DNA of 20,478 nt, taken from the UHGV virus genome UHGV-0138524, one strand, 5' to 3'. The stretch is from a virus. Below the pieces are notes generated by a model that ran no database searches, was not told the DNA's origin, and was given only the letters and a program-made list of their open reading frames with translations. Position 1 is the stretch's first letter, and each line of letters begins with the position of its first letter. Position numbers and translations under genes: made by a program. Shown piece after piece: positions 1 through 19,946 of the stretch.

Positions 1-55
1 GTAGAGCCGGTCACACACACCGCTGCGCCTAATTTTGCTCCCTCTCCCAAACCAA
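1..55. repeat. 55-bp exact direct repeat, copy 1 (identical to 19892-19946); encodes the first residues of a tail-fibre variable segment on the minus strand
   Basis: Base-by-base comparison of 1-55 with 19892-19946; identity stops at 56 (g) versus 19947 (c), the first base of the outer half-site. Confidence 0.9.
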
Positions 56-662
56 GGTTTTTAAGAACGTCGCCGGCCAGTCCCGCGTCAACCATTTCTT
101 TCAGAGCATTAGCGATTAACGGGTACTGCTTGTGTGGATTGGCGGCCTCAACATGTTTTTTCATCAGGTTATCAGCATATCCTTTCACCTCGATAATCTT
201 GTCGTCGACATACTGGCGCGTTGCCAGCACGACTGCCGGGTCGATTTTCAGGGTGATTGCCGATGTGTTCGACACAATCAGAATCATGCGAATGGTCTGC
301 GTGCGACCGCTTCCCTCCTGCAGTTGTGGCTTGTAGGTCTCCGGACAGTTCGCCACGGCAATCAGAATACCATCATCGTCATAGAGACCAATCTCGCGGA
401 TCCAGAAACCACCTTCATTCTCGGGAATAATCTGTTCCGCGATAATCTGACTGGTATTGGCCGGGTCAACGGTCAGCAGGTTCAGCGGCGCGATGCGTTT
501 CTGGTTAATGAGCTTCGTCTGCGCCGGGTCAGGGGTCGGCAACGTACCATTCGCATCACCGACGGCCATCTGCGTCAGGTTGAGTTTGGTACCGAGTGCC
601 GCCGCGTTCGCCAGCCGCGCCGCGCCCTGATTGGTCAGAATGGCAAAATATTTTGCGGTCAT
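1..662 (-). CDS. H: Tail fibre protein, N-terminal constant domain (P2 gpH-like), reading through crossover site L into a variable segment; 3' end lies outside the window
   Basis: Hand translation of the minus strand from ATG at 662-660: MTAKYFAILTNQGAARLANA...GILIAVANCPETYKPQLQEGSGRTQTIRMILIVS...[23 protein letters not shown], resembling the P2 H N-terminus from memory; start overlaps the gpI stop (ATGA); not in the ORF track because it is open at the window edge. Confidence 0.8.
   Translation of the reverse strand, partial: MTAKYFAILTNQGAARLANAAALGTKLNLTQMAVGDANGTLPTPDPAQTKLINQKRIAPLNLLTVDPANTSQIIAEQIIPENEGGFWIREIGLYDDDGILIAVANCPETYKPQLQEGSGRTQTIRMILIVSNTSAITLKIDPAVVLATRQYVDDKIIEVKGYADNLMKKHVEAANPHKQYPLIANALKEMVDAGLAGDVLKNLGLGEGAKLGAAVCVTGS
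43..68. other. DNA-invertase crossover site L (gix/hix-like), inside the tail fibre gene at the constant/variable boundary
   Basis: TCTCCCAAACCAAGGTTTTTAAGAAC; core AAACC-AA-GGTTT matches the hix/gix consensus as recalled. Confidence 0.7.
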
Positions 663-1267
663 GCGTTCACTCTCAGGTTATCAATCAAATGGATGGCCGA
701 GGCCGGGTAATATTCACCGCCGACGACAATCTCCTCGGGGGTGTAGGGGTAAACAGTCAGCGCGTCGCCGTGATAGCATCCCGCGCCGACATACAGTTCG
801 CCGGTCGAGCTCAGACTGATAGCCAGCCCGGTCAGGTGGCGACTTGCCGGTTTGGCGTCTTCAATCAGGCGCTCAAGCTCCTGATACATTTCGTCAGTGA
901 TGCCGCTGTCGAGGACGCCAACAACGAGGCGGAATGTGCCTGGCTCCTCGTCGAGTTGCCACCACTCGCGCACCTCAATCAGAAAGCCGAGCGGCTCGAC
1001 GACCCGACGCAATGCGCTGATGGTGCCTTTGTGCTGATGGACGAAAAACGAGGACGCGCAGACGTTGCGCTTTGTCGCCTCCGGCCATTTCTCATCCCAC
1101 CTGTCGACCGACAGCGCCCACGCCAGATACGGCAGCAGCTTTACCGGGCAGGTGCGCCAGTTCCACAGGGTGCGCAGCGGTACCGGCACGCGCTGAATCT
1201 CAGAGAACGCAGCGGCGGCGGCAACCTCCAGCGGCGACGAGCCAACGGGTAATAGCCGGTCACTCAT
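659..1267 (-). CDS. I: Baseplate assembly protein (P2 gpI-like)
   Basis: 202-aa ORF starting MSDRLLPVGSSPLEVAAA..., resembling P2 gpI; sits immediately upstream of H as in P2. Confidence 0.8.
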   Translation of the reverse strand: MSDRLLPVGSSPLEVAAAAAFSEIQRVPVPLRTLWNWRTCPVKLLPYLAWALSVDRWDEKWPEATKRNVCASSFFVHQHKGTISALRRVVEPLGFLIEVREWWQLDEEPGTFRLVVGVLDSGITDEMYQELERLIEDAKPASRHLTGLAISLSSTGELYVGAGCYHGDALTVYPYTPEEIVVGGEYYPASAIHLIDNLRVNA

Positions 1268-1598
1268 CCGAGCCCCCGATAGTTATCTGGTACTCAGTAC
1301 AATTCGACGCCTGCGACTTACTCAGCACAATGTCGGCCTGCGGTGATGCCAGTTCGACACGCTGCACCCCCTCAACATGCAGCGCCGCGTAAATGGCCGA
1401 CAGACGGATATCACGCCCGAGGCGGTGCTGCGCGCTGATGTAACTCTGCAGCTTTTGTTCTGATGCCTGCCTGATGGGCTCAGACTCGGGGCCGGGGTAA
1501 ACGTAGAGCGTCGCGTCAATTTGGTACGGCACAATCTCGGCTGACTGGACGGTCAATTCCGCTTGGCTGAATGAATCCGCGACGCTGTTCCGCCGCAA
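1260..1598 (-). pseudogene. J: Baseplate protein J, C-terminal fragment only (5'-truncated)
   Basis: 112-aa ORF (...TVQSAEIVPYQIDATLYVYPGPESEP...HRLGRDIRLSAIYAALHVEGVQRVEL...) resembles only the C-terminal third of P2 gpJ; upstream sequence switches to portal-like coding on the other strand. Confidence 0.65.
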
Positions 1599-2040
1599 GT
1601 ATTATCAGAACGGCGCGCACGCAGGCTACATCATGTATGTGACTGACCCGGCGCAGAGCGCGACCGACGTCGAATCGCTGCGCGAGGCGATGCGCAACTC
1701 AAAAGGGCTCGGCAACTTTAAGAACCTGTTTTTCTACGCTCCCGGCGGAAAACCGGACGGCATCAAAATCGTGCCACTGAGCGAGGTCGCCACAAAGGAT
1801 GACTTTTTCAACATCAAGAAGGCCAGTGCCGCCGATCTGATGGACGCGCACCGCGTACCGTTCCAGCTCATGGGCGGCAAGCCCGAGAATATCGGTTCAC
1901 TCGGTGATGTTGAGAAGGTGGCAAAGGTATTTGTGCGCAACGAGCTGTCGCCGCTACAGGACAGGTTCAGGGAGGTAAATGACTGGCTCGGCATGGAGGT
2001 CATCAGATTCAAAGAGTACACCCTCGACAACCCAGAATAA
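1594..2040 (+). pseudogene. Q: Portal protein (P2 gpQ-like), C-terminal fragment only
   Basis: Translation ...FRRKYYQNGAHAGYIMYVTDPAQSATDVESLREAMRNSKGLGNFKNLFFYAPGGKPDGIKIVPL...HRVPFQLMGGKPENIGSLGDVEKVAKVFVRNELSPLQDRF... resembles the C-terminus of P2-family portal proteins; the frame is open only from 1507, so the N-terminal two-thirds are absent. Confidence 0.6.
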
Positions 2041-2070
2041 CTTAGGCCGCCACAATCTCTGCGCTCATTA

Positions 2071-2099
2071 TTGAAGATGCAATCTGCGAAAGCTATAGT
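2071..2099 (+). promoter_or_regulatory. Candidate sigma70 promoter for the 334-aa ORF
   Basis: TTGAAG (2071-2076), 17-nt spacer, TATAGT (2094-2099), about 19 nt upstream of the ATG at 2118. Confidence 0.4.
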
Positions 2100-2117
2100 G
2101 CATCGAATATCAAAACA

Positions 2118-3122
2118 ATGGGCGCGGAGATTAATATTTTGGAAACTGATTTTAAAATAACCCTCGAAGGTTTCGCTACTGAGCAAGAAGCAAATAATAT
2201 CGGTAATTTCACACTAGAAGCTATCCGAGCTTTAACAAAAAATCTCAATCTTGATATCTCCAAATTAAAATGCGTGATTGTTTCCTATAACTTCAGTGAA
2301 GCTCTTCAAAAGGTAACATCCTCTTACCAACACAAATCCCCTAGTTCATTTACCAATAGCAAACAGGGCGCAGCCGTCGGGCAGTTAGTAACAAAAATTG
2401 GCAATGATGGGCTATGTGAAGAATATACCCTTGTGCTATCGATTGATTTTTTTGTTGAGCTTTTCAATGATGGTAGCTTCTTAAAACTGAAAGAAGAAGG
2501 ATACCTCGCAGTCATCCATCGCATTCACCATGAATTAGTGCACGTACATGAAAAAAACTTACTAACATGCTTAGCCCAAAACTTTACAGTCAACGAGTAT
2601 GGTAGCGCGCTTCTTATCTCAGCCACGCGTGCATGGTCTGAATATCTCGCTAATTACATGTCTTCGGGGTCTGCCCCTCAAGAAACTATCGATTTATTTT
2701 TAGAGAATCTTGACACTGTTGTAAATGAAGTATCTGACGAGATTGAAAAACTCATCTGGGGTTATAAGTACGGTAATATTTCTCTGAATGACATGTATCT
2801 TGAAGTAAAAAAACGTATCAGGCTAATCATCAACTCTTATGCTTATGCGATGGGTTATGTCCATTCTCTAAACATCAATATTAAAGAATACGATCCAAAG
2901 CTATCCCTTACACTATCCAACTCAAAGATAAGATATCAATTATCAGAATTAGGCATTGCTTTTCAGAATCTTTATGGGAAGTTTAATGACCAGCACATTA
3001 CAGGTTTTGGTGATTTTCGGGAGATAACAATAATCATTGATGAAATATTCAAGCAGTTTGGGCTTGTTTTAGAGTGTCCCGATTGGTCTGGCGACGGTGA
3101 ACTCTACATACATGTAAATTAG
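2118..3122 (+). CDS. Hypothetical 334-aa protein with an HExxH (zincin-like) motif; AT-rich accessory gene between the portal remnant and cos
   Basis: Long ORF in clearly AT-rich DNA compared with its neighbours; motif IHRIHHELVHVHE (HELVH) at about 2524-2550; no phage core gene recognised. Confidence 0.6.
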   Translation: MGAEINILETDFKITLEGFATEQEANNIGNFTLEAIRALTKNLNLDISKLKCVIVSYNFSEALQKVTSSYQHKSPSSFTNSKQGAAVGQLVTKIGNDGLCEEYTLVLSIDFFVELFNDGSFLKLKEEGYLAVIHRIHHELVHVHEKNLLTCLAQNFTVNEYGSALLISATRAWSEYLANYMSSGSAPQETIDLFLENLDTVVNEVSDEIEKLIWGYKYGNISLNDMYLEVKKRIRLIINSYAYAMGYVHSLNINIKEYDPKLSLTLSNSKIRYQLSELGIAFQNLYGKFNDQHITGFGDFREITIIIDEIFKQFGLVLECPDWSGDGELYIHVN

Positions 3123-3341
3123 TTTAATCATAGTAGAAACATAATTAGCAGTTTGAATCCTGCCACTCCTGTAAAGCCGCTGCTCCTGGTGGCTTTTCCA
3201 TGCACACCACCATCACGCATCAGATGCGTCTCACGCGCACGAACACACTCGACCACCAACGAACCAGCAGCGACCACGACAGCGCCATCACGACGCGCTC
3301 AGAGGATAATTTTTATTATTACGCATCACTGCTGGCGCGCA

Positions 3342-3360
3342 ATGCTTTCCCCGCCACGCC
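3342..3360. other. cos cohesive-end sequence (186/P2 type)
   Basis: ATGCTTTCCCCGCCACGCC; reverse complement GGCGTGGCGGGGAAAGCAT equals the 19-nt cohesive end of coliphage 186 as I recall it and differs at two positions from P2 GGCGAGGCGGGGAAAGCAC. Confidence 0.6.
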
Positions 3361-3520
3361 TGCCCGCTTTATGGGGCGGTTTTAATGCAGTTGCATGACA
3401 ACTCTGGATCCGCGCTAGCTCTGGCGGCGCACGGACAGAACGGGCAAGACTGACGCATGCAAAACCATGCACCTAATGCATGCACGACTAAAAAACGGGA
3501 AATTCGCGGAAAAATGGCAT

Positions 3521-3550
3521 AAAAAAACCGGCATTCAGGGTGCCGGTTTT
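3521..3550. terminator. Bidirectional rho-independent terminator at the end of the SOS operon
   Basis: A7 (3521-3527), stem CCGGCA (3528-3533) / TGCCGG (3541-3546), T4 (3547-3550); on the minus strand the hairpin is followed by U7. Confidence 0.6.
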
Positions 3551-3568
3551 AGTCTGGTTTTGTCGCGA

Positions 3569-3670
3569 TTAATGGCCGCGCAATGCGCCAATAACACTGT
3601 TGAGGCACATGCTGGCAACAATCATCAGAAAAATCGTCGTCCACGGATTTTCATAAACGATAGATAACAT
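3569..3670 (-). CDS. Candidate 33-aa hydrophobic (single transmembrane-like) peptide
   Basis: Hand translation MLSIVYENPWTTIFLMIVASMCLNSVIGALRGH; AAGAGGAA Shine-Dalgarno-like sequence upstream of the ATG; ends just before the terminator; absent from the ORF track, which lists nothing under 60 aa. Confidence 0.3.
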   Translation of the reverse strand: MLSIVYENPWTTIFLMIVASMCLNSVIGALRGH

Positions 3671-3686
3671 ATTTATATAGTTCCTC

Positions 3687-3992
3687 TTATTTGCGCATTC
3701 TGATGTGATTTAACAGGTGTTTGATAACGACTGATAGCTCATCTTTACCGGCCTGCTCGACCATTTTTGCGGTGTAGCTTTCCACCTCGCGAGAGCTCAG
3801 GTCGTTATTTAAAGCCATTAAAGTCAGATTCTTTGCCCAATCGGCAAACGGGTCATTTTTCGATGAAAGGGGATTTTGCATGTACAAAAACCTCGAATTA
3901 TTTAACCAGCAGACGGTTGAAGTATTTGCGACGCTATGACCGGCTAACGCCTCGCGTAGCTCGTTGTTCAACCCCGCCAGCACTGAAAGCAA
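3687..3992 (-). CDS. Hypothetical 101-aa protein in the SOS operon (TTG start as called)
   Basis: ORF downstream of the DinI-like gene in the same orientation; no family recognised. Confidence 0.4.
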   Translation of the reverse strand: MLSVLAGLNNELREALAGHSVANTSTVCWLNNSRFLYMQNPLSSKNDPFADWAKNLTLMALNNDLSSREVESYTAKMVEQAGKDELSVVIKHLLNHIRMRK

Positions 3993-4014
3993 GTTTCAGC
4001 ACCGGCGGCGTTTG

Positions 4015-4248
4015 TTAATGCAGCCAGCTATCGTCCTCCCATACCTGCTGCATGATTTCCATTACTCGTTTTTTATCTTCGTCCAGTTTCAAACCGCTTA
4101 GTTCAACGCCATTAGCGGAGCCCTTGCGAATTCGGATAGCAGTCTTTGGGTAAATAGGTTGAAGATTGCGGTACAGTTCAGCCTCAAGTGCATCCAATGT
4201 TGCCTGACTAATTTTTTGCTCTTTATCCAACGTGATATTGATTCTCAT
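4015..4248 (-). CDS. DinI-family protein (DNA-damage-inducible protein I-like; Tum-like module)
   Basis: 77-aa MRINITLDKEQKISQATLDALEAELYRNLQ...KKRVMEIMQQVWEDDSWLH resembles E. coli DinI and the DinI-like part of 186 Tum. Confidence 0.65.
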   Translation of the reverse strand: MRINITLDKEQKISQATLDALEAELYRNLQPIYPKTAIRIRKGSANGVELSGLKLDEDKKRVMEIMQQVWEDDSWLH

Positions 4249-4251
4249 AAT

Positions 4252-4434
4252 CTAATCAGCCTTATAAAAATTATCATCTTCGGTTTCGTTATTTTCGCTG
4301 TTTGCTAGGTCTGCAATGAGAGTGAGCGCGAGCTTTAAGTCTGATGGCTTGCAGTTTGCAATCAGAGATACCTCGGCAATAAATTGCACACAAGCCCACT
4401 TTTGCTGCGTTCGGCTGAAATGTTCGCCAACCAT
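4252..4434 (-). CDS. Hypothetical 60-aa protein, first gene of the SOS operon
   Basis: ATG at 4434 preceded by GGGAGGG; a LexA box lies about 20 nt upstream; stop is 3 nt before the DinI-like ATG. Confidence 0.4.
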   Translation of the reverse strand: MVGEHFSRTQQKWACVQFIAEVSLIANCKPSDLKLALTLIADLANSENNETEDDNFYKAD

Positions 4435-4453
4435 GAAATCCCTCCCACAGGGT

Positions 4454-4473
4454 TACTGTATATTTATACAGTA
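4454..4473. promoter_or_regulatory. LexA (SOS) box overlapping the promoter of the minus-strand operon
   Basis: TACTGTATATTTATACAGTA, a near-perfect match to the palindromic CTGT-N8-ACAG consensus. Confidence 0.75.
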
Positions 4474-4547
4474 GCACGTATTGGCAAAAGATGGGAAGAA
4501 AAAAAACGAATAGAGCGATTGCTGTATGTGCATGATATGGATATGAA

Positions 4548-6770
4548 TTACCCATGTATTGGTTTTGATGCTTCAGCCATCGCCGCAACACGATTAAGGA
4601 TTTTCCGAGCTTTAGCCTCATGCGATGGTGCTGCGGAAAATATTTCTCCTTTGGCCGTTCCGCGTAGCCATTTACCATCAAAACAACTTTTACCACCGGC
4701 CATCAGGTGCAGGGCTTCGCCCCGGCTGATATTAATGCCGGTTGTCAGATGTATCTCATCGATAGTTTTAGCTATAGCTGCGTTTTGCTCATCCGTTCCG
4801 TGGATGAATTTTCGCCGTGCTGCTGGCTTTTGCTTCCTGAGTCGGTTGGTCAATTCTCGTCTTTCACGCCGACTCAGTGGTTTTGTTAAATCCAGTATCG
4901 GTGGATCGCTTTCGCTTCCCGTACAGTTATTGACAGAACTCCGAGGGACGGCTTTGCCGTCCTGAAGGTCAACGGCCAAATCAACAGCACGCTTCGGAAC
5001 AATCTTCCACTGAGTGAGCCGGGTTAAAATCGGGCTTCCTGCACCTATGGAGGAATCGTAGACCCCCTTAATACATACCGTTTCCTCACCGTACTGATTA
5101 AGCTCGGTGCGCGGTTCATACAGTGTGCGCACCTGTAAATCATCGCGACGGACAAACGGCCCACCCTGAGCATTAACATAACCAGCCCAGTCACCAGCGT
5201 CGGCGGCATCATGGACGGCGGCAAACTCAACGCTCAGACCGTGCGCGGTTTCGGTATCAGCGAGGCGACGCAACTCACGGTAAACCGTCACCGGCGCACC
5301 ACCAATAAACTGAAACTGACGGATGTGCCAGCGCGCAGCCCATGCTGAAACGGCGGGGGCTGTCTCTTTCAGCAGCTCACCGCTTTCATCATCGGTTTCA
5401 CCATCGAGAGCATAACCGTCGATATTTTTTGAAATGTATTTAGCAACATAGCCGGTTGCGCTGCCTTTCTCCGGGTCAATGGACTCGGCGTGGAAACGTG
5501 CTTTTTTGGATTTATCGCTTTTCAGTTCGTGGCGGTCTTCTTTCCATGCGTATTTACGGACGATGGAGCGAACATATTCAACATCTTCCGGCAGCATGAA
5601 CATCAGCATGTGCCAGTGTGGAGTGCCGTCGTGATGGGGCTCGGCGACACGAATACCGAAAATACGGACATCTTCCCGATGTAGTTTGGCACGGATACGC
5701 GCCCAGATACCGGTTAGATAGTTTTGCGTGTCAGCCGGGCTGGCACCGCTCCATTTGCTGTTACGGTAACCGGCTTTAGTCGTGGCGTGATATTTTGACG
5801 GCGCGGTTAGAGTGTAAAACTCACCGACATAACCGAGCTCATTACAGATGTTTTCAAACCCACGAATGCGGGTCATGAGCTCACAGCGGCGAATCGCAGG
5901 GTTAGCAACTGAGCCATCATATTTTTCAATTAGGCTGATACGGTTGCCGTCTTCGTCTTCGAGATCCAGACCTTTGAGAAATTCACGAGTGCGGCGCTTT
6001 TGTTCACGCCAGTCAGTCACGCAGTTTTTACTCGCGTAAGTGTTTTTTTTCTTACTGACGTTGCCGACTGCAATTTGCAGGTGTTCGCGCCACGTAGCTG
6101 CAACACGGCGCAAACGACCGCGCCACCACCCATCGTTAAACATTTTGGCGATAGCCGGTGCGATTTCATCCGCACCGACATATTTTTTTTCAACCCGCTC
6201 CCAATGTGGTGGGATAACGTTGAATTGGAGGGAAATAAAGCCAGCACGAATATACCAGGTGTACAGCGTTTTAAGCTCGCCGAATCCGTGGTCATTAATG
6301 TTGGCAAGTTCACCACGAATGAAATTAGCAATATCAGCGGCCAACAGGTCAACATCAGCGCGCGACATGTCCGGGAGACGGTTATATTGGGCGACCATAT
6401 TAACCATGCGTGACGACAGATATTGCATTTGCTGAGTATCAAAATGACTTCCAAAAACAGCGGTTGATACCTTGCTGTTGATACCAGCGCATTCGTATTT
6501 TTTTGCGACCAGTTCAAGACGCGGCAATGCCTTTTTGCAGAAGCTGATTAAAAATGCATTGGCTCGTTGACTACCCTGATTTTGCTCCAGCACCGCAGCA
6601 GTGCGATAAACATCTAACCGCACGCAGTCGGGCTGGAGAGAAAGCACCTTTTTTGCATGCAGCAAAGCCGCGAACATACGGTCGCGGCGATGCTGTTGCT
6701 CATAAGTAAGGTATGGGCTGGAGATTGCCGACCGTGGGACGTTCCACGGATAAGCGAATTGAACAGCCAA
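4548..6770 (-). CDS. A: Replication initiation endonuclease (P2 gpA-like rolling-circle initiator)
   Basis: 740-aa ORF with HDGTPHWHMLMF (His-hydrophobic-His) and GYVAKYISKN (paired tyrosine) motifs typical of the family. Confidence 0.85.
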   Translation of the reverse strand: MAVQFAYPWNVPRSAISSPYLTYEQQHRRDRMFAALLHAKKVLSLQPDCVRLDVYRTAAVLEQNQGSQRANAFLISFCKKALPRLELVAKKYECAGINSKVSTAVFGSHFDTQQMQYLSSRMVNMVAQYNRLPDMSRADVDLLAADIANFIRGELANINDHGFGELKTLYTWYIRAGFISLQFNVIPPHWERVEKKYVGADEIAPAIAKMFNDGWWRGRLRRVAATWREHLQIAVGNVSKKKNTYASKNCVTDWREQKRRTREFLKGLDLEDEDGNRISLIEKYDGSVANPAIRRCELMTRIRGFENICNELGYVGEFYTLTAPSKYHATTKAGYRNSKWSGASPADTQNYLTGIWARIRAKLHREDVRIFGIRVAEPHHDGTPHWHMLMFMLPEDVEYVRSIVRKYAWKEDRHELKSDKSKKARFHAESIDPEKGSATGYVAKYISKNIDGYALDGETDDESGELLKETAPAVSAWAARWHIRQFQFIGGAPVTVYRELRRLADTETAHGLSVEFAAVHDAADAGDWAGYVNAQGGPFVRRDDLQVRTLYEPRTELNQYGEETVCIKGVYDSSIGAGSPILTRLTQWKIVPKRAVDLAVDLQDGKAVPRSSVNNCTGSESDPPILDLTKPLSRRERRELTNRLRKQKPAARRKFIHGTDEQNAAIAKTIDEIHLTTGINISRGEALHLMAGGKSCFDGKWLRGTAKGEIFSAAPSHEAKARKILNRVAAMAEASKPIHG

Positions 6771-6771
6771 T

Positions 6772-7220: not shown

Positions 7221-7287
7221 AATTAACTCTCCTGCTTTCGGGCAATAAGATGCCCGGCGGGTTTACGCCATTAAATTTCTGTTTGGA

Positions 7288-7790: not shown

Positions 7791-7797
7791 ACGCACC

Positions 7798-8337: not shown

Positions 8338-8339
8338 AT

Positions 8340-10042: not shown

Positions 10043-11092
10043 ATGACTGTAAGTAAACAAAAAAGTGGAAAATGGTTGTGTGAACTCTATCCAAATGGTC
10101 GAGAAGGGCGGCGTATACGTCGGCAGTTCAATACCAAAGGTGAGGCCGAGGCATTTGAAGCATTTACCAAAAGCGAGAGTGAAGATAAGCCGTGGCTCGG
10201 CAAGAAAGAAGACCGCCGACGCTTAAGCGAGATTATTCAGCTTTGGCACAATTTGCACGGTCAAGCGTTAGTCGCCAGTAAGTCGAGATTTGCAAAGCTT
10301 CAAATCGTATGTAATGGACTTGGCGACCCGATTGCATCTCGCCTTACCGCGAAAGACTGGGCTCATTATCGTGACCGTCGATTACGTGGTGAAATAGACA
10401 ATGGTTATCATAAAGACCCCTCGAAATGGATCGCCAAACCTATAACCGTCAATCGCGAACAACAATACCTAGAAGCAGTGTTTAATGAGCTCCGCCGGTT
10501 AGGGGAGTGGAGCCTACCCAATCCACTTGATGGGATCCGAGTATTCAAAGAAGCTGAGAAAGAAATGTCCTGGCTAACTTTGTCTCAGCTCCCGGAGCTG
10601 TTTCGAGCCTGCGAGCAATACGGCAAAGAAGACCTCACCATGATTGTTAAGGTGTGCCTTGCAACCGGCGCTCGATGGGGGGAAGCGGAGAGATTGACCC
10701 GACCTCAACTTTCTCCATATAAACTAACGTTCACCAAAACCAAAGGTAAGAAGAATCGCACAGTTCCTATTCCTAAATGGCTGTACGACGAGTTGTCCGT
10801 ACGTCAAGGCAGAATGTTTAAACCCTGCTATCAGGAGTTTAAAAAGATGCTCAAACTAACGAATATTGAATTGACGGAAGGGCAGAAGACGCACGTTTTG
10901 CGTCATACTTTTGGTGCGCATTTTATGATGAACGGAGGGAATATACTGGTGCTGCAGAAAATTCTCGGACATGCCAATATTCGAGAAACAATGAAGTATG
11001 CGCACTTTGCTCCTGACCACCTTGAACAAGCTGTAACCCTCAATCCGTTATCGCTGTATGTTGGCGACAATGTGGCGGCAGAGGTTGCATAA
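10043..11092 (+). CDS. int: Tyrosine integrase (P2/186 family)
   Basis: 349 aa; N-terminus ...GKWLCELYPNGREGRRIRRQFNTKGEAEAFE; catalytic-region signature VLRHTFGAHFMMNGGNILVLQKILGHANIRETMKYAH. Confidence 0.85.
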   Translation: MTVSKQKSGKWLCELYPNGREGRRIRRQFNTKGEAEAFEAFTKSESEDKPWLGKKEDRRRLSEIIQLWHNLHGQALVASKSRFAKLQIVCNGLGDPIASRLTAKDWAHYRDRRLRGEIDNGYHKDPSKWIAKPITVNREQQYLEAVFNELRRLGEWSLPNPLDGIRVFKEAEKEMSWLTLSQLPELFRACEQYGKEDLTMIVKVCLATGARWGEAERLTRPQLSPYKLTFTKTKGKKNRTVPIPKWLYDELSVRQGRMFKPCYQEFKKMLKLTNIELTEGQKTHVLRHTFGAHFMMNGGNILVLQKILGHANIRETMKYAHFAPDHLEQAVTLNPLSLYVGDNVAAEVA

Positions 11093-11227
11093 CACTGCAA
11101 TTCACTGCATTAAAAATTACTTTAACTAGTTGTTTTATATGGTAAGTGTTTGTTCGCTGTGGGGTGTTAATAGGAGCGTCTTAACTGATAACGTATTCGC
11201 GCTACATCCAAAGCGTGTTATGAAACA

Positions 11228-11257
11228 AGGGGTTAGCGAATTGCTAACCCCTTTTTT
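11228..11257 (+). terminator. Rho-independent terminator downstream of int
   Basis: Stem AGGGGTTAGC / GCTAACCCCT with loop GAATT, followed by T6. Confidence 0.6.
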
Positions 11258-11331: not shown

Positions 11332-11332
11332 T

Positions 11333-11551
11333 TCAAAGCCAAAGTTGCTGTTGTTGGTTTCTGATGGGGTGTGGCGGAGCAGGATCAACAGTACCCGGTT
11401 TCACAATGAATCTTGATAGCGTCTCAAAAGTGATAAATGTACATCCGCAATTTATGTTCTGGCACTGGTGATAACGTTCTTTTGTTTCGGTGCTAAGGTA
11501 CCGGCTAGTGCGAGCATGTGCGGCGTTTTGGCATAACGGGCAGTGCATCAT
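11333..11551 (-). CDS. ogr: Ogr/Delta-family zinc-finger late-gene activator
   Basis: 72 aa MMHCPLCQNAAHARTSRYLSTETKERYHQCQNINCGCTFITFETLSRFIVKPG... closely resembles P2 Ogr; GGGGA upstream of this Met; the track ORF starts 15 codons further upstream. Confidence 0.85.
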   Translation of the reverse strand: MMHCPLCQNAAHARTSRYLSTETKERYHQCQNINCGCTFITFETLSRFIVKPGTVDPAPPHPIRNQQQQLWL

Positions 11552-11626
11552 AATTATTTCCCCTGCTGGCGTATCTGAGGGAATAATAAACTTCAAAATT
11601 GCATTTGCAAGTTTTGGTTTGCTTTT

Positions 11627-12796
11627 TCACTCCTCATTTTCTTCTGAGCTGTACTCCACATCGGAGAGTTTAACCTCAAGCTCTAAGCCCGTCGTGAAAC
11701 CGTTATTATTGAGGTTGTGGGTCACCTTGCTGATTAACCATGCCTGCTCGTCTATGACGCGCTTAAAGCCTGACACGCGTACAGGCGTCTCAGGAAATAA
11801 ATCCGCTCGCCCTAGCGCCAGTGTGATTGAAAACTCCGCAACACCTCGCTGCAGTTTATCCCACTTAGCCTGAGCGGCGCGCATCGCCTGTGCCTTTGAG
11901 GCATAGACTGTCGTCAGCGCCAGCACGTTATCGGCTTCACCGGCCATGTACTCACCCTCACGTGCTTCCTGTTCTTTTTTGACCTTTGTCTTTTTGCTGA
12001 CCGGCTTTGCTTTTGGGTGTTCCAGTGCGCGCAGGTGCTTCTCTTTTGGCTTGCGTTTCAGCGTTACTTTCTGCTTTTGTGGCTTCGGGTCTTTGGTGTG
12101 CAACCATTTAGCAGTGACGCCGGTATAAGCCCCACGGTCGGCAATGGCAAACTGATGACGGTCACCATCACTGCGGGTCAGCGTCATTTGCGGGACGGGT
12201 TTGCCGCTGGCCGTCATCGCACTACCGGCTTTCAGAAACAACAGTTTCCCTGCCTTCACCGATACCGTTGCCCCGTTGCGGTCAGCCAGTCGACTCAAAA
12301 ATACCGCGTCGGATTCCTGCGACTGGTCGATATGCGGTACCGGGATTTTTTTCAGCGATTCCGCAATGCTGGCCGTCAGTTTGTTGCGCTTTGCGATGGT
12401 ACTGACCAGTTCGCCGATGGTGGTGTCGTGCCATGACTCTTCACGCCTGGAATTTAGCGTGCCGCGAAAGTCCGCGCTGCGCGCCCGGATGGTCAGGGTA
12501 TCAGGAGCCCCCCGGTGCTCAATCTCATCGACCGTAAAATCCCCCTTATTCAGCAGCGCCGAACCCTGCCAGCCAAGCCACAACGTCAGCACTGCCCCGC
12601 GCAGGGGTAACTCGACTTTCCCATCGGTGTCATCGAGCTCAATGTCGAGCTGGTCAGCTTCAAAGCCCCTATTGTCCGTCATGGTGAGAGAAATCAGCCG
12701 GTCGCTGAAGTTGCTGGTAATGTCCTGACTGTTCAGCGTCAGCATAAAAGCCGGTGCAAGGCTGGCACCGGCGTCAATTGCCATCCCCGTTATCAT
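11627..12796 (-). CDS. D: Tail protein D (P2 gpD-like late control/tail protein)
   Basis: 389-aa ORF in conserved P2 order (ogr-D-U-T); sequence resembles gpD. Confidence 0.8.
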   Translation of the reverse strand: MITGMAIDAGASLAPAFMLTLNSQDITSNFSDRLISLTMTDNRGFEADQLDIELDDTDGKVELPLRGAVLTLWLGWQGSALLNKGDFTVDEIEHRGAPDTLTIRARSADFRGTLNSRREESWHDTTIGELVSTIAKRNKLTASIAESLKKIPVPHIDQSQESDAVFLSRLADRNGATVSVKAGKLLFLKAGSAMTASGKPVPQMTLTRSDGDRHQFAIADRGAYTGVTAKWLHTKDPKPQKQKVTLKRKPKEKHLRALEHPKAKPVSKKTKVKKEQEAREGEYMAGEADNVLALTTVYASKAQAMRAAQAKWDKLQRGVAEFSITLALGRADLFPETPVRVSGFKRVIDEQAWLISKVTHNLNNNGFTTGLELEVKLSDVEYSSEENEE

Positions 12797-13278
12797 GCAG
12801 TGAAACCTCCGGGCATACCCTGCAGTTTATCTGTCAAATTACCGGCAGAGCCGAGAAGCTCACTGGCCTGTTTATTCAGGTCACCAAACATCTCTGTCAG
12901 CGATTCATCAACCCGTTTTAGCGAAAGCGTGAAATCAATCTTTCTGGCCGCACCATCACTGAAAAACTCGGTGCGTGTAGTCGATACTTTATCGACGATA
13001 TACATCCCGAGGATATTTCCGGTTCCCTCTATCAACGGCCACGCTCTGCCTTCATTGGCCATCACCTCTACAGCCTTAAGTGAGATCCAACCGCCAGTGA
13101 TAGCGGGGTATAGCGTACCAGCAAGCTGTATAGAGGTTTCCCCCTCGCCAAGAAACTGATAGGCAGGTGGTTTACCCACCCGGTCATTGGACACCCAGCG
13201 ATAATCTTTCGAATGCTGCATCGACTGGTAAGGCAGGGTGCGAAGTTCAAACACAAACATTCCGAGAGCAAGCATCAT
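12793..13278 (-). CDS. U: Tail protein U (P2 gpU-like)
   Basis: 161-aa ORF overlapping the D start; order and sequence resemble gpU. Confidence 0.8.
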   Translation of the reverse strand: MMLALGMFVFELRTLPYQSMQHSKDYRWVSNDRVGKPPAYQFLGEGETSIQLAGTLYPAITGGWISLKAVEVMANEGRAWPLIEGTGNILGMYIVDKVSTTRTEFFSDGAARKIDFTLSLKRVDESLTEMFGDLNKQASELLGSAGNLTDKLQGMPGGFTA

Positions 13279-13291
13279 CGTTTAATCCCCC

Positions 13292-15734
13292 TCAATAGTC
13301 GTGGGTCATGTTGGCACGCTGGCGGGCGCGTTTATCGCGCTCAATCTGTTCGAGCGTGTCGCGTAGTTGTCTGTCAAGCTGATGCCCCGGCGCAACACCT
13401 CCCGGCAGATTGATGTTGTATTCGCTTTTGCTCTGGTCAATGTAAGAGCGCCCCGCCGGTGCGGTAACTGGCTGATAAGCCTGATAGCCGCCATATGTGC
13501 TGGTTGCCGGGATGTAGGAATTACCCTGTGTGGCGGCATTGGTTTTGGCGGCGGTCTGGTCGAGGCTGTCCGACTCTTTGTTGATGATGCCGAGCTTTTC
13601 GAGAAGCCAGTCGACACCGCTGCGCAGCTTGTTAAAAACATTGAGCGGAGCCATCAAGGCAGAGGCCAGTGCCTGACCAAATATGACGCCGACACTTTTG
13701 CAGCTATCAAGCGTTTCCTGCGTGGCCTTAACCGGTGCTATCAGGTCTTTAAACCACTGCCAGACGCCGCGCAGTTTCTCGCCGAGACCATCAAAAATGG
13801 GAGCCAGTGGAGCGAACATTTCCCCGACTGGGGCAAAGGCACTCATGATGCCCTCAATCACTCCCGAGAAAAATGCGCTGATGGGCTCCCAATATTTACG
13901 GATGAGTAGCGCCCCCGCCACAATCGCCGCACCGACGGCCACTATCGGCCAGGTAATCGCACCGAGCGCTGTCGCAATGGCACTACCGACGACAGTAAAG
14001 ACCGTACCCAGCACGCCAGCAGCGGCGATAATGGCATTAATCCCCATGACAACCGGCCACGCAACGAGACCAATGCCGCCGATGATACCAATCAGCGCCA
14101 GCGCACCACCGGCGATGATGCCGATAGTTTCCGCTAACTCCTTGTTGTCTTTGATCCAGTCATCAAGCTTTAGCACATACCGTGTTGCTGTCTGAGTTAG
14201 CTGACGCAATGAGCTATCTTGCTGGTCGTAGAGGTCGGTACCGACGGCCTCATAAGCGGATTGAAACTCTTTGAAGTCGCCACCTAAGTTATCCTGCATA
14301 ATTTTAACAAGCTCTGCGGTTTTTCCGTCTGAGGCTTTCAGGGTGGAGGTTAGCTGGTCAAGTTTGCCGGTTGAGGCGGCAGTCATGAGCACCGCCGCCG
14401 CCGAACTGGCTTCCTCACCGAATATCGTTTTCATGTATTCGGCTTGTTGACCGGTGCCGAGATTGTTACGCTCAAAACTGGCCTGCATTTCCTTGAGGAT
14501 GGTAAAAATCGGGCGCGTGTTGCCTTTACTGTCGGAAGTTTTGACCCCCAGCTCCTTAAGCGCATCCCACGCTTTACCGGTCGGAGCCTGCAGGCGGCTT
14601 AAAACCGCACGGCTCCCGGTGCCGGCCATCGAGCCGGTGATTTTGGCGTCATGCAGGGCGCCCACCATTGCGGCAGTTTCTTCAATGCTGACACCGGCAT
14701 TTTTCGCCACCGGCGCGGCGTATGTCAGCGCATCGCTCAGCCCGTCGAAATCGGCAGCAGTTTTATTCATCACCGTCGACAGAACGTCGCCAATGTGCGC
14801 CACCTTGTCATTGGAAAGCTGAAACGCAGAGCGCATCCCCATCAGTAATGCGGCGTTTTCTTCCATCGTGCGACGGTTGGCAAGCGCCATATTGAGGGTG
14901 ACCGGTGTCGTCGCCTGAATGGCTGCCGCATCGCCGCCCCCTTTGGCGATAATAATCTGCGCACTGGCTGCATCATCAGCAGAAGCGGCTGTATTGTCAC
15001 CGAGCTGGCGTGCCTGTTTGCGTAGCGCCTCCATTTCTGGCGACTGCTTATCGACCCCGAGCACGGCCTGCAGCTCGGAATTTTTCTGCGCAAAGTCATA
15101 ACCGGGCATCAGTAATTTCACCCCGGCCATCGTTCCCGCTGTCGCGATACCTACCCCGGCAGCCCCTGCAGCGGCCATGTTACCGGCAAGCTCCTTGCCT
15201 GATTTATATCGCTCTTTCACCCGGCCTAATTTCGCCTGCTGCGCACTGACGCGCGAGTGCCTCACGCTGGCGGTTAAGCTGCGCCGTCGTTTCGCTGATG
15301 GAGGTTTTGAGCCGACGCTCATCGGCAGAAAGGGTGCGGGTATTAATACCGGCCTGCATCAGTTCGGAGCGCTGGCGCTGTACAGACGTTCTCAGACTGT
15401 TGTACTTCGTCTGTAGCTCAGAGGCAGCACGCTTTGCCGCTTCGAGTGCCTGCGCCTGCGCGCGGGTCGGACTGGTGGAGTTTTTAAACTGCACGGCCAG
15501 TTCACCGGCTTCGCGTTTCGCTTTCTCAAGCGCCTGACTGGTCACGGCCAGTTGCGCACTGGCCTTACGAAAGCCGTCGATTTTTGACGCCTGACCATTC
15601 AGGTCACGCAGCCCTTTTTGTGTTTCGCGAATATCGCCCGACAGGGTTTTACTCGCGGTCTGGATGGATTTAAGCGGTCGGGTCGCCTGGTCGACCGCTT
15701 TCAGCAAAACCTCAAGTCTCAGGTTATTACTCAT
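13292..15734 (-). CDS. T: Tail tape measure protein (P2 gpT-like), frame interrupted near 15250-15256 (two overlapping ORFs, 15734->15204 and 15322->13292); possible pseudogene
   Basis: N-terminal ORF ends ...NRQREALARQCAAGEIRPGERAI*; the second frame continues ...RVSAQQAKLGRVKERYKSGKELAGN...; hydrophobic Gly/Ala-rich segments typical of tape measure proteins. Confidence 0.75.
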
Positions 15735-16214
15735 TGTGGTGTCCGCTACGCTGCAGCGCCTTTTCGCGCCATGTGATGAGCTCGGTCAGGCTCAGGGAAT
15801 AGAGCTCTGATAGCGGCCAGTGGAATATCACCGCGATATCCGCCATCAGGTCATCGGTCGACAGGTCGGGCGGGAAATCTACTCCGCCGAAGCCGGTGAC
15901 AAAAAACCAATCACCTTAGCGGCCAGCGACAGCATATCGGGCAGGTTCATTGCGGTAAGCTCCTGCGCCGTAAGCGCGGGGTAGGTCATGCGTGGCAATA
16001 CCTTAATCAGCGCATCGACTTCGGACTGCGCCACCGCTGCCAGACTGACACCGCGCAGGGTACCGGCGTTCGGCTCAATCAGTGTGACTTTATCAATCGT
16101 CTGACCGGCGCGCTTAATCGGCTTGTCGAGGGTCACGACGTTCGGGTTTACGGTGTCAATTTCATTGCCAGCCATATCAACAAATTCAGCGGTTTTACGT
16201 GGTGCTTTTGCCAT
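15727..16214 (-). CDS. E': E+E' fusion produced by programmed -1 ribosomal frameshift
   Basis: Slippery TTTTTTG on the minus strand (plus 15900-15906); the -1 frame continues FFVTGFGGVDFPPDLSTDDLMADIAVIFHWPLSELYSLSLTELITWREKALQRSGHHNE* and its stop overlaps the T start (ATGAGTAA). Confidence 0.65.
15879..16214 (-). CDS. E: Tail assembly chaperone E (P2 gpE-like)
   Basis: 111-aa ORF ending ...DMLSLAAKVIGFLSPASAE; position between FII and T. Confidence 0.75.
   Translation of the reverse strand: MAKAPRKTAEFVDMAGNEIDTVNPNVVTLDKPIKRAGQTIDKVTLIEPNAGTLRGVSLAAVAQSEVDALIKVLPRMTYPALTAQELTAMNLPDMLSLAAKVIGFLSPASAE
15900..15906 (-). promoter_or_regulatory. Slippery heptamer for the E/E' programmed -1 frameshift
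   Basis: T6G run on the coding strand near the 3' end of E, as in P2 and lambda G/GT. Confidence 0.6.
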
Positions 16215-16277
16215 GATGTTTTTCTCTGCTCTGAATGGGGATTAATAACCGGCCAGCAGTGCTGACCGGTCAGGGAA

Positions 16278-16796
16278 TTACAGCCCGATTGCGCGGCGGT
16301 GCTGTTCCAGACGGTCGACGCCGTTCACCTTCTCAACCATGTTGACGGTATCGATTTCGATGACGTCGCTACCATCAATCGTGAGGCGGTAATAGGTGCA
16401 TACGGTCGACAGTTTGGTCGAGGTGTTTTCACCCTGCTTATTCTCGCCGCCGTCGATTTCTTTATGACGGCCACGCATGACCACCTCGACCGCCACGATT
16501 TCGCCAGTGTCGTCACGTTGGTAAGAGCCAGCAAAACGCAACGGCACAGCGTCAGCACCCGGCGCGGCGTACTGCGCCCACAGCGCCACATCAGGCAGGC
16601 CACCGACAGACCATTCGACGGTGAGCGCATCATCGTCGAGACCAAGGTCAATCGCCGCCGCGCCATTCATGCCGCCGCCGCGATAGTTTTCGAGCTTGCG
16701 GGTCAGCTTCGGCAGCGTCACGGATTCAACAACGCCCATGTAGCTAAGGCCGTCATTGAACATGTTCAGATATTTAAGTTTGCGGGGTAGTGCCAT
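16278..16796 (-). CDS. FII: Tail tube protein (P2 gpFII-like)
   Basis: 172-aa ORF directly downstream of the sheath gene; sequence resembles FII. Confidence 0.8.
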   Translation of the reverse strand: MALPRKLKYLNMFNDGLSYMGVVESVTLPKLTRKLENYRGGGMNGAAAIDLGLDDDALTVEWSVGGLPDVALWAQYAAPGADAVPLRFAGSYQRDDTGEIVAVEVVMRGRHKEIDGGENKQGENTSTKLSTVCTYYRLTIDGSDVIEIDTVNMVEKVNGVDRLEQHRRAIGL

Positions 16797-16811
16797 GTTG
16801 TTTCAGGCTCC

Positions 16812-17990
16812 TTAGCTGTTGACCGATTCGGCCAGATTTACCAGATATTTATCGGTGATACGCTGGCGCAGGGTCAGGCTTTCCAGTGGTGGAACCGGTG
16901 TATAGTCGTAGTCGATATACAGTTTCCCGGCCTTGAGGGTTTCCTTATCGTTCGATTCCTCGTCAAACCAGCATTCACCGTCCACGATGTAGCCGTTTGA
17001 TTTCAGCTCGCGGAATTTGGCGTTAATGCCGTCGACAATGTCACGGATAAGTGATGCGGTGATGGGCTTATCGACCGCCCACATGTGCGCCTCGGCCATC
17101 GTGTCGGCCAGCACCTGCGCGGTGCGGGTGTAGTTCTCAAACAGGAAAAGCGGGTCATCAGAGCAGGTGCGGTTACCCCAAAAGCGGAAGCCATCCTTAC
17201 GCACCAGTGTTGTGAGCCCGGCCTCGTTGAGCAGATCAGCATCGGTGCCGGATGCCTGCAAATCCCAAAACACTGACGCACTGATGCCGGTAACACCCTG
17301 CACGCCGATGTTAGACAGGGTTTTGTGCCAGCCGACGGTCTGGTCGATATAGGCACGCAGGCCGAGTGCGCGCGCAGTTGCGTATGCCGGTGCGGTGGCG
17401 TTTGTGGTGGTATCCCATGCAAGGAAATCAGGCCAGATGACCATCAGCTCGCGCTGGCTGAAATTCTCGCGATAGGCCATCGCCTCGGAAATGGTTTTAC
17501 AACCCCATGCGCTGATATAGCCAAAGGCGCGCAGGCTGATACAGACCGAAGCAAGTGCGACTGCGACCTCTTTGGTATCGAGACCCGGCACGCCGAGAAT
17601 GCGCGGCTTAACGCCGGTGACTGCTTCGGCAGTCAACAGCGCCTTGATGCCGGTATATTTACCGCTCTCATCCGTGCCGCCGATGATATTGGAAATGGTC
17701 TGCGCTTCGGCGTCTTCTCCGGTACCTTCGGCAACACGCACGACAACTGTGACAGGTTTTGACTGGTCGGCGATGGCCTGCAGGGAGGCAGACAACGTGC
17801 CTTTTTTACCGGCTTTTGCAATGGCGCTCTGCACATTGGTAATCAATACCGGTTCGTTGAGGGGGAATGTCTCGGCATCCGCATCGCTGGCCGTGCAGAC
17901 CATGCCGACAATTGCGGTTGCAACAGTGGAAATGACGCGGGTGCCGTCGTTAATCTCAAGCACCTGCACGCCGTGGTGAAAATCACTCAT
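16812..17990 (-). CDS. FI: Tail sheath protein (P2 gpFI-like)
   Basis: MSDFHHGVQVLEINDGTRVISTVATAIVGMVCTASDADAETFPLNEPVLITNVQ... closely resembles P2 FI; start taken at the Met at 17990 (GGAG upstream) rather than the track start at 18017. Confidence 0.85.
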   Translation of the reverse strand: MSDFHHGVQVLEINDGTRVISTVATAIVGMVCTASDADAETFPLNEPVLITNVQSAIAKAGKKGTLSASLQAIADQSKPVTVVVRVAEGTGEDAEAQTISNIIGGTDESGKYTGIKALLTAEAVTGVKPRILGVPGLDTKEVAVALASVCISLRAFGYISAWGCKTISEAMAYRENFSQRELMVIWPDFLAWDTTTNATAPAYATARALGLRAYIDQTVGWHKTLSNIGVQGVTGISASVFWDLQASGTDADLLNEAGLTTLVRKDGFRFWGNRTCSDDPLFLFENYTRTAQVLADTMAEAHMWAVDKPITASLIRDIVDGINAKFRELKSNGYIVDGECWFDEESNDKETLKAGKLYIDYDYTPVPPLESLTLRQRITDKYLVNLAESVNS

Positions 17991-18088
17991 CCGGTTAACT
18001 CCGTGGTTAGTGGGCAAGTGTTATTGTCCTGGCTGGTCTGTTGAGGGGCTATTTGTCAGTGTTGGGTGATGTCTGACACATTGAGACA

Positions 18089-18331
18089 TCAGCAACGGAT
18101 GCGGGAAATTTTTTGTATAGCGTTGAGATACCCGAGGCGATCCAGTTTCCAGACCACAAGCGTATCGCCCTCTGACAAGGTTCTGAGTAACCTCTTTAGC
18201 CCCGGCCAGTCTGATGTTTTGCCGCTGATTTTATCTTCGAAAATCAGCTCGCATCCTGCGCACTCCAGTTCATTTCGCTGTAATGCGGTGTTCTGGTCAT
18301 TTGTTGATACACGTACATAACCGATAAACAT
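18089..18331 (-). pseudogene. Serine DNA invertase (Gin/Hin/Pin family), 3'-truncated remnant
   Basis: MFIGYVRVSTNDQNTALQRNELECAGCELIFEDKISGKTSDWPGLKRLLRTLSEGDTLVVWKLDRLG then unrelated residues and a stop; homologous to the first ~70 codons of the intact invertase at 20066. Confidence 0.75.
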
Positions 18332-18385
18332 GAGAAATAACCCGGTAAAAAGTCGGGATCATGCCAGCTGAACGGAATATCTGCA

Positions 18386-18411
18386 TTTTCTAAAAGGTTG
18401 GTTTAGGAGAT
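18386..18411. other. Crossover site M (degenerate outer half-site) bordering the invertible segment
   Basis: TTTTCTAAAAGGTTGGTTTAGGAGAT; the inner half GGTTTAGGAGA matches sites L and R, the outer half reads AAAGG instead of AAACC. Confidence 0.55.
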
Positions 18412-18765
18412 GCGGCAAAAAAAAATGTTGGCACTGGTTCCGGACAGATTCCGGACATGTCTTCATTTGGTAATCAGCGAGCCGATTCGGGGTATCAATA
18501 CCTGCCAGGCGGGTTAATTCTTCAATGGGCAATAGCCATAACGAGAACATCCCCAGAAACAGTATCATTCCCGATTGCGTTTCCAACCAGGGCGCTATGT
18601 GTTGTTGCAACAGACCAGAGTGTTGGGGGTACAGGTCAAGGTTTTGCGTTAACCGCCCAGGATTTTACGAGAACTAATTTCCAGCTACGCGCTTATCAGA
18701 CAGGAACCAACGCTGAATCATCCATCGGCGCTGGCGGGTTTAACTATTTTGCTGTGGGGTATTAA
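18394..18765 (+). CDS. Tail fibre C-terminal variable cassette (start-less Sv segment, silent in this orientation)
   Basis: Frame open from 18394: KVGLGDAAKKNVGTGSGQIPDMSSFGNQ...FNYFAVGY, paralleling the [19 protein letters not shown] junction of H; followed directly by a Tfa gene. Confidence 0.6.
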   Translation, partial: KVGLGDAAKKNVGTGSGQIPDMSSFGNQRADSGYQYLPGGLILQWAIAITRTSPETVSFPIAFPTRALCVVATDQSVGGTGQGFALTAQDFTRTNFQLRAYQTGTNAESSIGAGGFNYFAVGY

Positions 18766-18768
18766 TAA

Positions 18769-19200
18769 ATGGCTTATTTTTATTCAGCATTAAATAACGC
18801 TTTCTACCCTGATGAGCTCAGAGATGTTTATGAAGCGAGTAGAAACTGGCCTGACGATCTCATAGCCGTCTCAGATGAGACATTCACTGAATATTCGGGG
18901 ATGCCACCAGAGGGTAAAACTCGTGGAGCTACTGAGGATGGAATGCCGGCATGGGTAGACATTCCACCTTTAAGCCATGAGGAGGAAATCGCAGCAGCTG
19001 AAGCTGAAAAACAGTATCGTATCGATCAGGCTAATGAGTATATAAACAGCAAGCAGTGGCCGGGTAAAGCTGCGCTGGGGCGACTTACAGACGACGAGAA
19101 GGCCCAGTATAACGAGTGGCTGGATTATCTCGATGCGCTGGAATCTGTGGACATATCCAGCGCACCAGATATCAACTGGCCTGAGTCGCCGGAGGAGTAG
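18769..19200 (+). CDS. Tail fibre assembly protein (Tfa; Mu U / P2 G family)
   Basis: 143 aa ending ...[28 protein letters not shown], the characteristic Tfa C-terminus. Confidence 0.75.
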
Positions 19201-19603
19201 GCCAGTCCGGGTCTGCTGTATCAACTCGCATCAGCAGCACCCGGTATTTTTTCCATTCGGCTAATGAAACAGTTTCTTCTTCCGTCGCGATCCCCGCATC
19301 AACGGCGTCCTGCCGCCATTCTATTTCAGAGTCAGCTGAAGCACGCAGTCGCGATTTTTCGGCTTCTGCCAACGCAATAATTTCCTCTTCAGTTGGTTCG
19401 GGAATATCTATCCATTCAGGTAAACCATCAGAATTAGGAGCGCGTAATTTTCCGTTAGGTGATTCTCCGGCAAACTCAACGAATACGGAATAGTCTACTT
19501 CAACGGCATCGTCAGGCCAGCTACCTGCATTTTCATAAATACTTTTTAGCTCATCAGCGTAGAACGCATTTTCTTTTGCAGAATAAAACATATTAATCAC
19601 CAT
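19172..19603 (-). CDS. Tail fibre assembly protein, second (convergent) copy
   Basis: 143 aa ending ...[28 protein letters not shown]; 3' ends of the two Tfa genes overlap by 29 bp. Confidence 0.75.
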
Positions 19604-19946
19604 CCAATCGCGAAAACTCTAAAGCCACCGTAGCCAGCACATGTAATCTGAGTTCTTGTTACCGTCGTATAGTATGATCGGCCCACCGCTAAGCTATATG
19701 CGGCTGTAGAACTCAAATCAACTGCCCCAGTTGATACATCACTAAATAACGGAATCATGCACTCATTTGGGAATGCAATAGGGAAATTCGCAGTTACTGG
19801 TGTCACATAATCAGTTGTAGTAGCACCAAACCACTGCAATATGATCACCCGTTCTTTCCCGGCGACCATTGCCGGGATAGTCATATAGCCTGTAGAGCCG
19901 GTCACACACACCGCTGCGCCTAATTTTGCTCCCTCTCCCAAACCAA
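19597..19946 (-). CDS. Tail fibre C-terminal variable cassette (start-less S'v segment beginning at crossover site R)
   Basis: [30 protein letters not shown]...[10 protein letters not shown]; its first 17 residues are encoded by the 55-bp repeat also present at 1-55. Confidence 0.65.
19892..19946. repeat. 55-bp exact direct repeat, copy 2 (identical to 1-55)
   Basis: See copy 1. Confidence 0.9.

Follow-up and report, generated by a model that had tools for sequence, protein, structure and literature searches.

A 55-bp repeat at a tail-fibre crossover site in a contig of a defective P2/186-like prophage, very probably a graph branch at an invertible module shared with a second locus

The stretch of DNA analyzed here, called the window, is the 20,478-nucleotide virus genome UHGV-0138524. 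A look-up of the truncated invertase product at its right end identifies the window as the entire contig ena:ERZ1755337:NODE_1_length_20478_cov_5.37, whose name has the format used by the assembler SPAdes. Most of the contig is a 19,891-bp unit, a defective Escherichia coli prophage of the P2/186 type, called the element below, with an invertible tail-fibre module next to the fibre gene H. The last 532 bp, called the extension, carry the outer half of a crossover site and the beginning of a serine DNA invertase gene. Positions 1-55 recur exactly at 19892-19946, as an earlier note on this sequence had pointed out, and direct comparison finds the next bases unlike, G at 56 and C at 19947. The repeated 55-mer, GTAGAGCC...CCAAACCAA, starts at the first base of the contig. 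Chance is ruled out as its source, because only about 1e-25 exact 55-mer repeats are expected in random sequence (about 2e8 position pairs times 4^-55).

Identity between the two copies ends just past the central AA dinucleotide of two crossover sites of the Gin/Hin type, again in agreement with the earlier note. The right-hand site lies where that note placed it, at 19933-19958, and reads TCTCCCAAACC AA CGTTTTCCGGAAG. The left-hand site had been put at 43-68; its dyad symmetry moves it by one base, to 42-67, where it reads TCTCCCAAACC AA GGTTTTTAAGAAC. A third site, previously missed, occupies 18386-18411 in inverted orientation and reads TCTCCTAAACC AA CCTTTTAGAA on the minus strand. A pattern scan with the core AAACC-AA-SGTTT returns five matches in the window, compared with 0.7 expected. 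Site 1 (42-67), which resembles gixL, consists of the inner half-site of the cassette SvX, the central AA at 54-55, and an outer half-site, GGTTTTTAAGAA, that belongs to the constant part of H; the same site is present in the prophage of E. coli 1008S13 (position 15086 of locus L001). The first copy of the 55-mer, at 1-55, is the last 55 nt of SvX, with its inner half-site and the central AA. Site 2 (18386-18411), the gixR of the element itself, has its outer half on the side of an invertase stump, a central TT at 18398-18399, and the inner half of the cassette SvY. Site 3 (19933-19958) combines the SvX inner half and central AA with the outer half CGTTTTCCGGAA, which is invertase-proximal and of gixR type.

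The invertible module itself spans 18400-19944 and is flanked by inverted 26-bp crossover sites, each made of imperfect 12-bp half-sites around a 2-bp core. It contains SvY (18400-18765, plus strand), tfaY (18769-19200, plus), tfaX (19172-19603, minus), and SvX (19597-19944, minus). From the crossover through MSSFGNQ... the sequence of SvY keeps the reading frame, and both fibre tips share the frame of the constant part of H across a conserved LGLG motif. Gp53-like_C and Caudo_TAP domains are present in two copies each. This is the arrangement known from Mu G/Gin, P1 C/Cin, and e14 P/Pin: 26-bp inverted sites with an AAACC-AA-GGTTT core, two opposed cassettes of tip plus chaperone that fuse in frame to a constant fibre gene, and an invertase gene just outside one of the sites. 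Judged by the features tested, the system appears to belong with the Gin/Cin/Pin tail-fibre switches, within a P2/186-like prophage. Unlike those systems, however, the element has only a stump of its own invertase, and the intact invertase on the contig is part of another flank. As a class, tail-fibre inversions have been catalogued well (PMC9881135). Nothing in the window falls outside known kinds, and its biology is ordinary and already known.

The module is shared among phages that otherwise have little in common. Copies at loci L002-L015, on P2-like, Mu-like, and another myovirus backbone, agree at 99-99.9% identity and begin and end exactly at the crossover sites, and a single genome, GCA_052874175.1, has the module twice (L009 and L010). 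These comparisons indicate that the whole 1.55-kb cassette has been exchanged horizontally, and recently, among unrelated phage backbones. P2-family E. coli prophages, one in NZ_CM151386.1 (L004) and a pair designated L006 and L012, hold the same 1,554-bp module at 99.8-99.9% identity between H and FI, in both orientations; the two members of the pair are otherwise collinear and differ by inversion of the module, with breakpoints at the sites. In 219 of the 353 blocks of the collection the longest contig bearing tfaX is shorter than 2 kb, from which it follows that short-read assemblers usually isolate the module.

The extension begins with an outer half-site and an invertase leader (19947-20065, plus strand) that are foreign to the element and 100% identical to a prophage of E. 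coli PCP06171 (L005). Next come the N-terminal 137 codons of a serine DNA invertase of the Gin/Cin/Pin type (20066-20478, plus strand; PF00239, E 2e-52), cut by the end of the contig. The product starts MLIGYVRVSTNDQ, has the conserved serine of YVRVST, and aligns end to end over residues 1-137 with Mu Gin (3UJ3/4M6F; E 4e-74). Homologs at 92-94% identity carry a C-terminal PF02796 domain; the copy in the window ends at codon 137. The best cluster representatives, in the same range of 92-94%, come from P1-like plasmids or a further P2-like lineage, with a DNA identity of only 84-85%. Across 19947-20075 the flank is 100% identical to a junction with the order silent cassette, site, invertase in the PCP06171 prophage, which belongs to a different P2-like lineage. 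When the whole extension is compared (19947-20478 against L005 7998-8544), the coding part of the invertase is only about 85% identical, a mosaic with its breakpoint near the start codon. A search of JGI metagenomes with the flank gave a single match, the 2.3-kb contig Ga0157367_1034624, in which the same flank stands beside a different cassette.

The invertase DNA of the extension is 76% identical to the stump of the element and 74-77% identical to the invertases that accompany the module elsewhere, among them those of L004 and L006/L012, whose backbones also differ. Stump and invertase form a 205-nt inverted repeat of 76% identity (18132-18336 against 20061-20265), and the end of the contig reads invertase, site, module, site, invertase. 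The perfect match of the flank, taken together with the divergence of the invertase, marks the extension as the canonical invertase-proximal junction of another locus. Most likely this is a second locus of the same strain with the same 1.55-kb module. The junction of SvX with an intact invertase needs such a locus, because on that side the element itself has the invertase stump and then FI. In the collection this junction is present on a single contig, and it has no exact match in IMG/VR; the invertase flank has no exact match among GTDB species representatives. The 114-residue open reading frame (ORF) of SvX, as called beside the invertase, has no record, and on this contig no gene was called at that place.

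A single locus has to be considered as well. The earlier note had suggested that an assembler broke a heterogeneous invertible region at a 55-mer, and the segment of the element could occur in both orientations in the sample, with the break at that point. The module does invert between L006 and L012, and the constant part of H is in frame with either cassette. Inversion of the element's own segment, however, would yield H joined to SvY and SvX joined to the stump and FI, not SvX joined to an intact invertase, and every sister contig of the element has the module in one and the same orientation. An explanation from this one locus is very unlikely. The suggestion of an assembler break was essentially right, but one heterogeneous locus is insufficient and a second is needed.

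Joining position 19946 to position 56 gives a unit of 19,891 bp, as the earlier note described, in which H runs in frame into the S'v cassette. The constant N-terminal part of H (56-662, minus strand) continues into 19946-19597, and the resulting ORF of 318 residues has Phage_tail_fib and Gp53-like_C domains (PF12571 and PF21882). This joint is internal to at least seven independent contigs made by two assemblers, with H called at 318 residues. The prophage of 1008S13 shows the same continuity as the seven contigs. The joining of H to SvX is ordinary gene continuity and not the product of a recombination.

Over about 18.4 kb the window shares 99.9% identity with this 186/PSP3-like prophage, which lies at rplS-yfiB of E. 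coli 1008S13 (NZ_CP147053.1, L001). Its order is ogr-D-U-T-E-FII-FI, an invertase stump, and an invertible fibre segment, followed by H-I-J-W-V-S-R, lysis genes, X-L-M-N-O, P-Q, a cargo gene, cos, A, cII, CI, and int. The window is a circular permutation of that order, in which int is joined to ogr through the core GAGCGTCTTAACT (11174-11186). This is the attP configuration, and the core is identical to the 3' end of rplS. The two prophages have the same att core, invertase stump, and cargo gene; 1008S13 holds the integrated form, in contrast to the attP form of the element. The same assembly series also includes two attL contigs and one attR contig. Together with the internal attP these contigs imply that integrated and attP forms coexist, the latter as an excised circle or a tandem copy. 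In assembly ERZ1755106 the depth of the element is 5.69, compared with 3.95 for the flanking chromosome (NODE_3, about 4x). Virion DNA was considered as the source and rejected, as the contig continues across cos without a break and there are contigs with attL and attR. As a cycle the 19,891-bp unit is real, and it is probably also circular as DNA. The earlier proposal of a circle formed by recombination at the invertase site holds for the circularity of the unit but not for its origin, since closure is by attP and by the continuity of H.

By default metaSPAdes uses k values of 21, 33, and 55, and contigs derived from circular paths bear an overlap of length k. Two sister assemblies, ERZ1754902 and ERZ1754488, each have one contig named NODE_1_length_19946, equal to 19,891 plus 55 nt. 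The ERZ1754902 contig ends at window position 11228, with a start at 11174 extrapolated by collinearity; the ERZ1754488 contig starts at 11132, with an end at 11186 extrapolated in the same way. The 55-nt overlaps of these two contigs lie flush with the 13-bp att core (11174-11186), one with its first base and one with its last, and not with the crossover site. Three assemblies therefore present one molecule with 55-nt overlaps at different branch points, which reflects the behavior of the assembler and not the DNA. The window resembles circular-path contigs in its NODE naming, in a repeat at the contig end of a length equal to k, in sister contigs whose length equals the unit plus 55, and in the fact that independent assemblies open elsewhere with the same overlap length. 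It differs in that the walk ran 532 bp further, which leaves the second copy internal. A SPAdes contig of a circular genome with a 55-bp end overlap is a documented case (PMC8483715). The 55-bp repeat is an overlap left by the k=55 graph; the DNA itself is not duplicated there.

A genuine 55-bp direct repeat that flanks an integrated 19.9-kb element, with a circle formed by recombination of the copies at the invertase sites, has nothing to recommend it beyond the appearance of the contig itself. Against it, a repeat exactly k long starts at base 1 of the contig, and other assemblies open the element at att. Integration of the element uses a tyrosine integrase and a 13-bp core in rplS, and all three forms, attL, attR, and attP, have been observed. 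In the closest complete genome the site occurs once, and H is continuous with the cassette. That explanation is almost certainly wrong.

The evidence is best accommodated by a walk through the assembly graph in the order vertex, loop, vertex, side branch, with the module shared by a second inversion locus, and we regard this as very probably the correct account of the contig. A k=55 de Bruijn walk, of the metaSPAdes kind, would start at the branching 55-mer, the vertex at which the contig begins, and would circle the 19,891-bp cycle once. It would re-enter the same vertex at the second occurrence (19892-19946) and leave by a side branch, continuing for 532 bp until coverage or another branch stopped it. 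Every locus would hold the 55-mer once in its DNA, and nothing would be flanked by a 55-bp direct repeat. The cycle would be the defective 186/P2-like E. coli prophage in the attP configuration, alongside an integrated form at the 3' end of rplS. The vertex would branch because at least one other tail-fibre inversion locus of the same strain has the same 1.55-kb module, and identity between the loci would stop at the central dinucleotide, the point of module exchange. Of the two exits, G56 would lead into the element's own H, and C19947 into the second locus, with its invertase-proximal half-site, its leader, and its intact Gin-like invertase. Orientation heterogeneity at that second locus is possible and compatible with such a walk.

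Several points weigh against this account. No public sequence was found with this invertase beside this cassette, and the second copy of the module in the sample is one that we infer and have not seen. The assembler and the value k=55 are deduced from the naming of the contigs and from the lengths of 19,946. For each of the two sister contigs one 55-nt end was read, and the other is extrapolated from length plus collinearity.

The literal order of the contig might also be real. The circle or the prophage would then have been fused with the second locus into a cointegrate or other rearrangement, by the invertase or by RecA acting between identical 1.55-kb modules. The observed order (module, H ... 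FI, stump, module, invertase) is exactly that of such a fusion product, and the central dinucleotide is exactly where the junction falls. Other runs branch there too, as in the Logan contig SRR1215507_607, which terminates exactly at 19946. The graph, moreover, gives no distinction between a fusion and two separate loci. On the other side, the unrearranged junction of H with SvX is in at least seven contigs, and the invertase junction in one only; and the end of identity at the crossover is already accounted for by the sharing of the module among phages. Wild-type invertases of the Gin/Hin family are strongly biased to intramolecular inversion between inverted sites with an enhancer in cis, and fusion or deletion needs mutant enzymes. 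This general preference disfavors a physical cointegrate. The cointegrate that the earlier note had offered as an alternative found no supporting evidence. We consider a physical fusion unlikely, and infer that the extension lies in a separate locus and is not physically joined to the element.

The element is part of a larger set of assemblies. As the longest or top contig, at about 5.4-5.7x, it appears in several assemblies of the ERZ175xxxx series, and it is present in ERZ1754488, ERZ1754891, ERZ1754902, ERZ1755106, ERZ1755270, ERZ1755283, and ERZ1755337, as well as in Logan runs SRR1211531-SRR1215958. One E. coli strain, or a contaminant, is seemingly present throughout the ERZ175xxxx/SRR121xxxx series.

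When a contig starts with an exact repeat of length k, the repeat is to be read first as an assembly-graph signature, even if it stops precisely at a crossover site, and such cases call for caution. Invertible tail-fibre modules shared among prophages are predictable sites of graph branches.

The element is a defective derivative of a 186/P2-like prophage and not a complete phage. The earlier note described its gene order as canonically P2-like; the order is indeed that of P2 and 186, but 9.9 kb is gone at window position 1555, a deletion that had been overlooked. The missing part corresponds to L001 16592-26526 and comprises the N-terminal part of J, W, V, S, R, the lysis genes, X, L, M, N, O, P, and the N-terminal part of Q. 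Its junction, J' to Q', has 1 bp of microhomology and is illegitimate. No match to this junction was found in 5,426 complete E. coli genomes, and no exact match in IMG/VR. A misjoin by the assembler at 1555 was considered and rejected, as the overlap is 1 bp only and the same junction is present in Logan contig SRR1214490_571; because that contig was built with a different assembler, the junction is taken as real. Of what defines a complete P2/186-like temperate myovirus (Peduoviridae), the head and packaging genes, lysis, R, S, V, W, and J are gone, apart from the J' and Q' remnants. What is retained is replication gene A, int with attP, the CI/Apl-CII control region, ogr, a cos-like sequence, and the tail genes FI to D in P2 order.

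Other differences from the 1008S13 prophage are smaller. A 2-bp deletion at window position 15255 frameshifts the tape-measure gene T (13292-15734, minus strand), which is split into ORFs of 176 and 628/676 residues; the split is identical across all sister contigs. About 0.4 kb is absent near 3944-4012, where the window has one copy of a 69-bp imperfect repeat; in the 1008S13 prophage a second copy lies about 400 bp from the first, and a small ORF separates the two. The invertible module of the element is unlike that of the 1008S13 prophage, but an invertase stump of about 67 codons is common to both. A P4-like or other phage satellite was considered and rejected, as all segments that remain match a full-length prophage at about 99.9% identity; annotation and profile searches of the element revealed no satellite-type genes.

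The element's own serine invertase is the stump at 18089-18331 (minus strand), with about 67 homologous residues that cover profile positions 2-76 of 145 in PF00239; it is incomplete in L001 as well. With this stump as its own invertase, the module of the element could switch, to judge from its gene content, only with an invertase acting in trans. Action of an invertase across elements is established, by PinE on the Mu G segment and by Fin on the Hin segment (PMC12529663). The element adds one more defective P2/186-like prophage whose Gin-type fibre switch would depend on a trans-acting invertase.

The cos-like sequence GGCGTGGCGGGGAAAGCA (3343-3360, minus strand), which we take to be the P2/186-type cos core, is kept in an element with no head genes. 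Together with int, attP, replication gene A, the immunity region, and the somewhat greater depth of the attP form relative to flanking chromosome, it invites a more active reading of the 19.9-kb derivative, not as a dead remnant but as a self-excising, self-replicating mini-element that rides a co-resident P2-like helper. The helper would package it through cos and switch its fibre in trans with the helper invertase, and occasional fusion by invertase or RecA at the shared module would give the junction seen in the contig. We hold this quite unlikely. Should the fusion or the mini-element prove correct, the element would offer a modest case of a defective prophage that makes use of a co-resident relative; the observations require neither.

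The remaining genes follow the order of the 1008S13 prophage. Next to H lies the baseplate or tail protein I (659-1267, minus strand; PF09684, Tail_P2_I), followed by the C-terminal remnant of baseplate gene J (1260-1555, minus; PF04865), which stops at the deletion junction. The C-terminal remnant of the portal gene Q (1555-2040, plus) is assigned by comparison with the 1008S13 prophage. A cargo gene of 334 codons (2118-3122, plus) forms an island of 38% G+C between the portal remnant and cos, an accessory position of the P2 'old/tin' type; its product has no match in Pfam or PADLOC and matches only phrog_11743, a family with no assigned function. Replication endonuclease A (4548-6770, minus; PF05840) and the tyrosine integrase (10043-11092, plus; PF24624 and PF00589) come before the attP core. 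Beyond the core, by comparison with the same prophage, the tail genes ogr, D, U, T (frameshifted), E/E', FII, and FI fill 11333-18017 on the minus strand.

Branch points are found at two further places. Contig NODE_10 of ERZ1755270 begins at window position 62, seven bases past the crossover. This hints at a third locus, with an outer half-site that starts GGTTTTT and then diverges, as in the type represented by L014 (GGTTTTTG...). Two contigs made by two assemblers, NODE_1_length_19875 of ERZ1755283 and SRR1214034_781 of Logan, have their breaks at 1232 and 1249. These breaks point to a 126-bp exact repeat, at window 1178-1303 on the boundary of I and J, in common with another P2-like prophage of the same strain.

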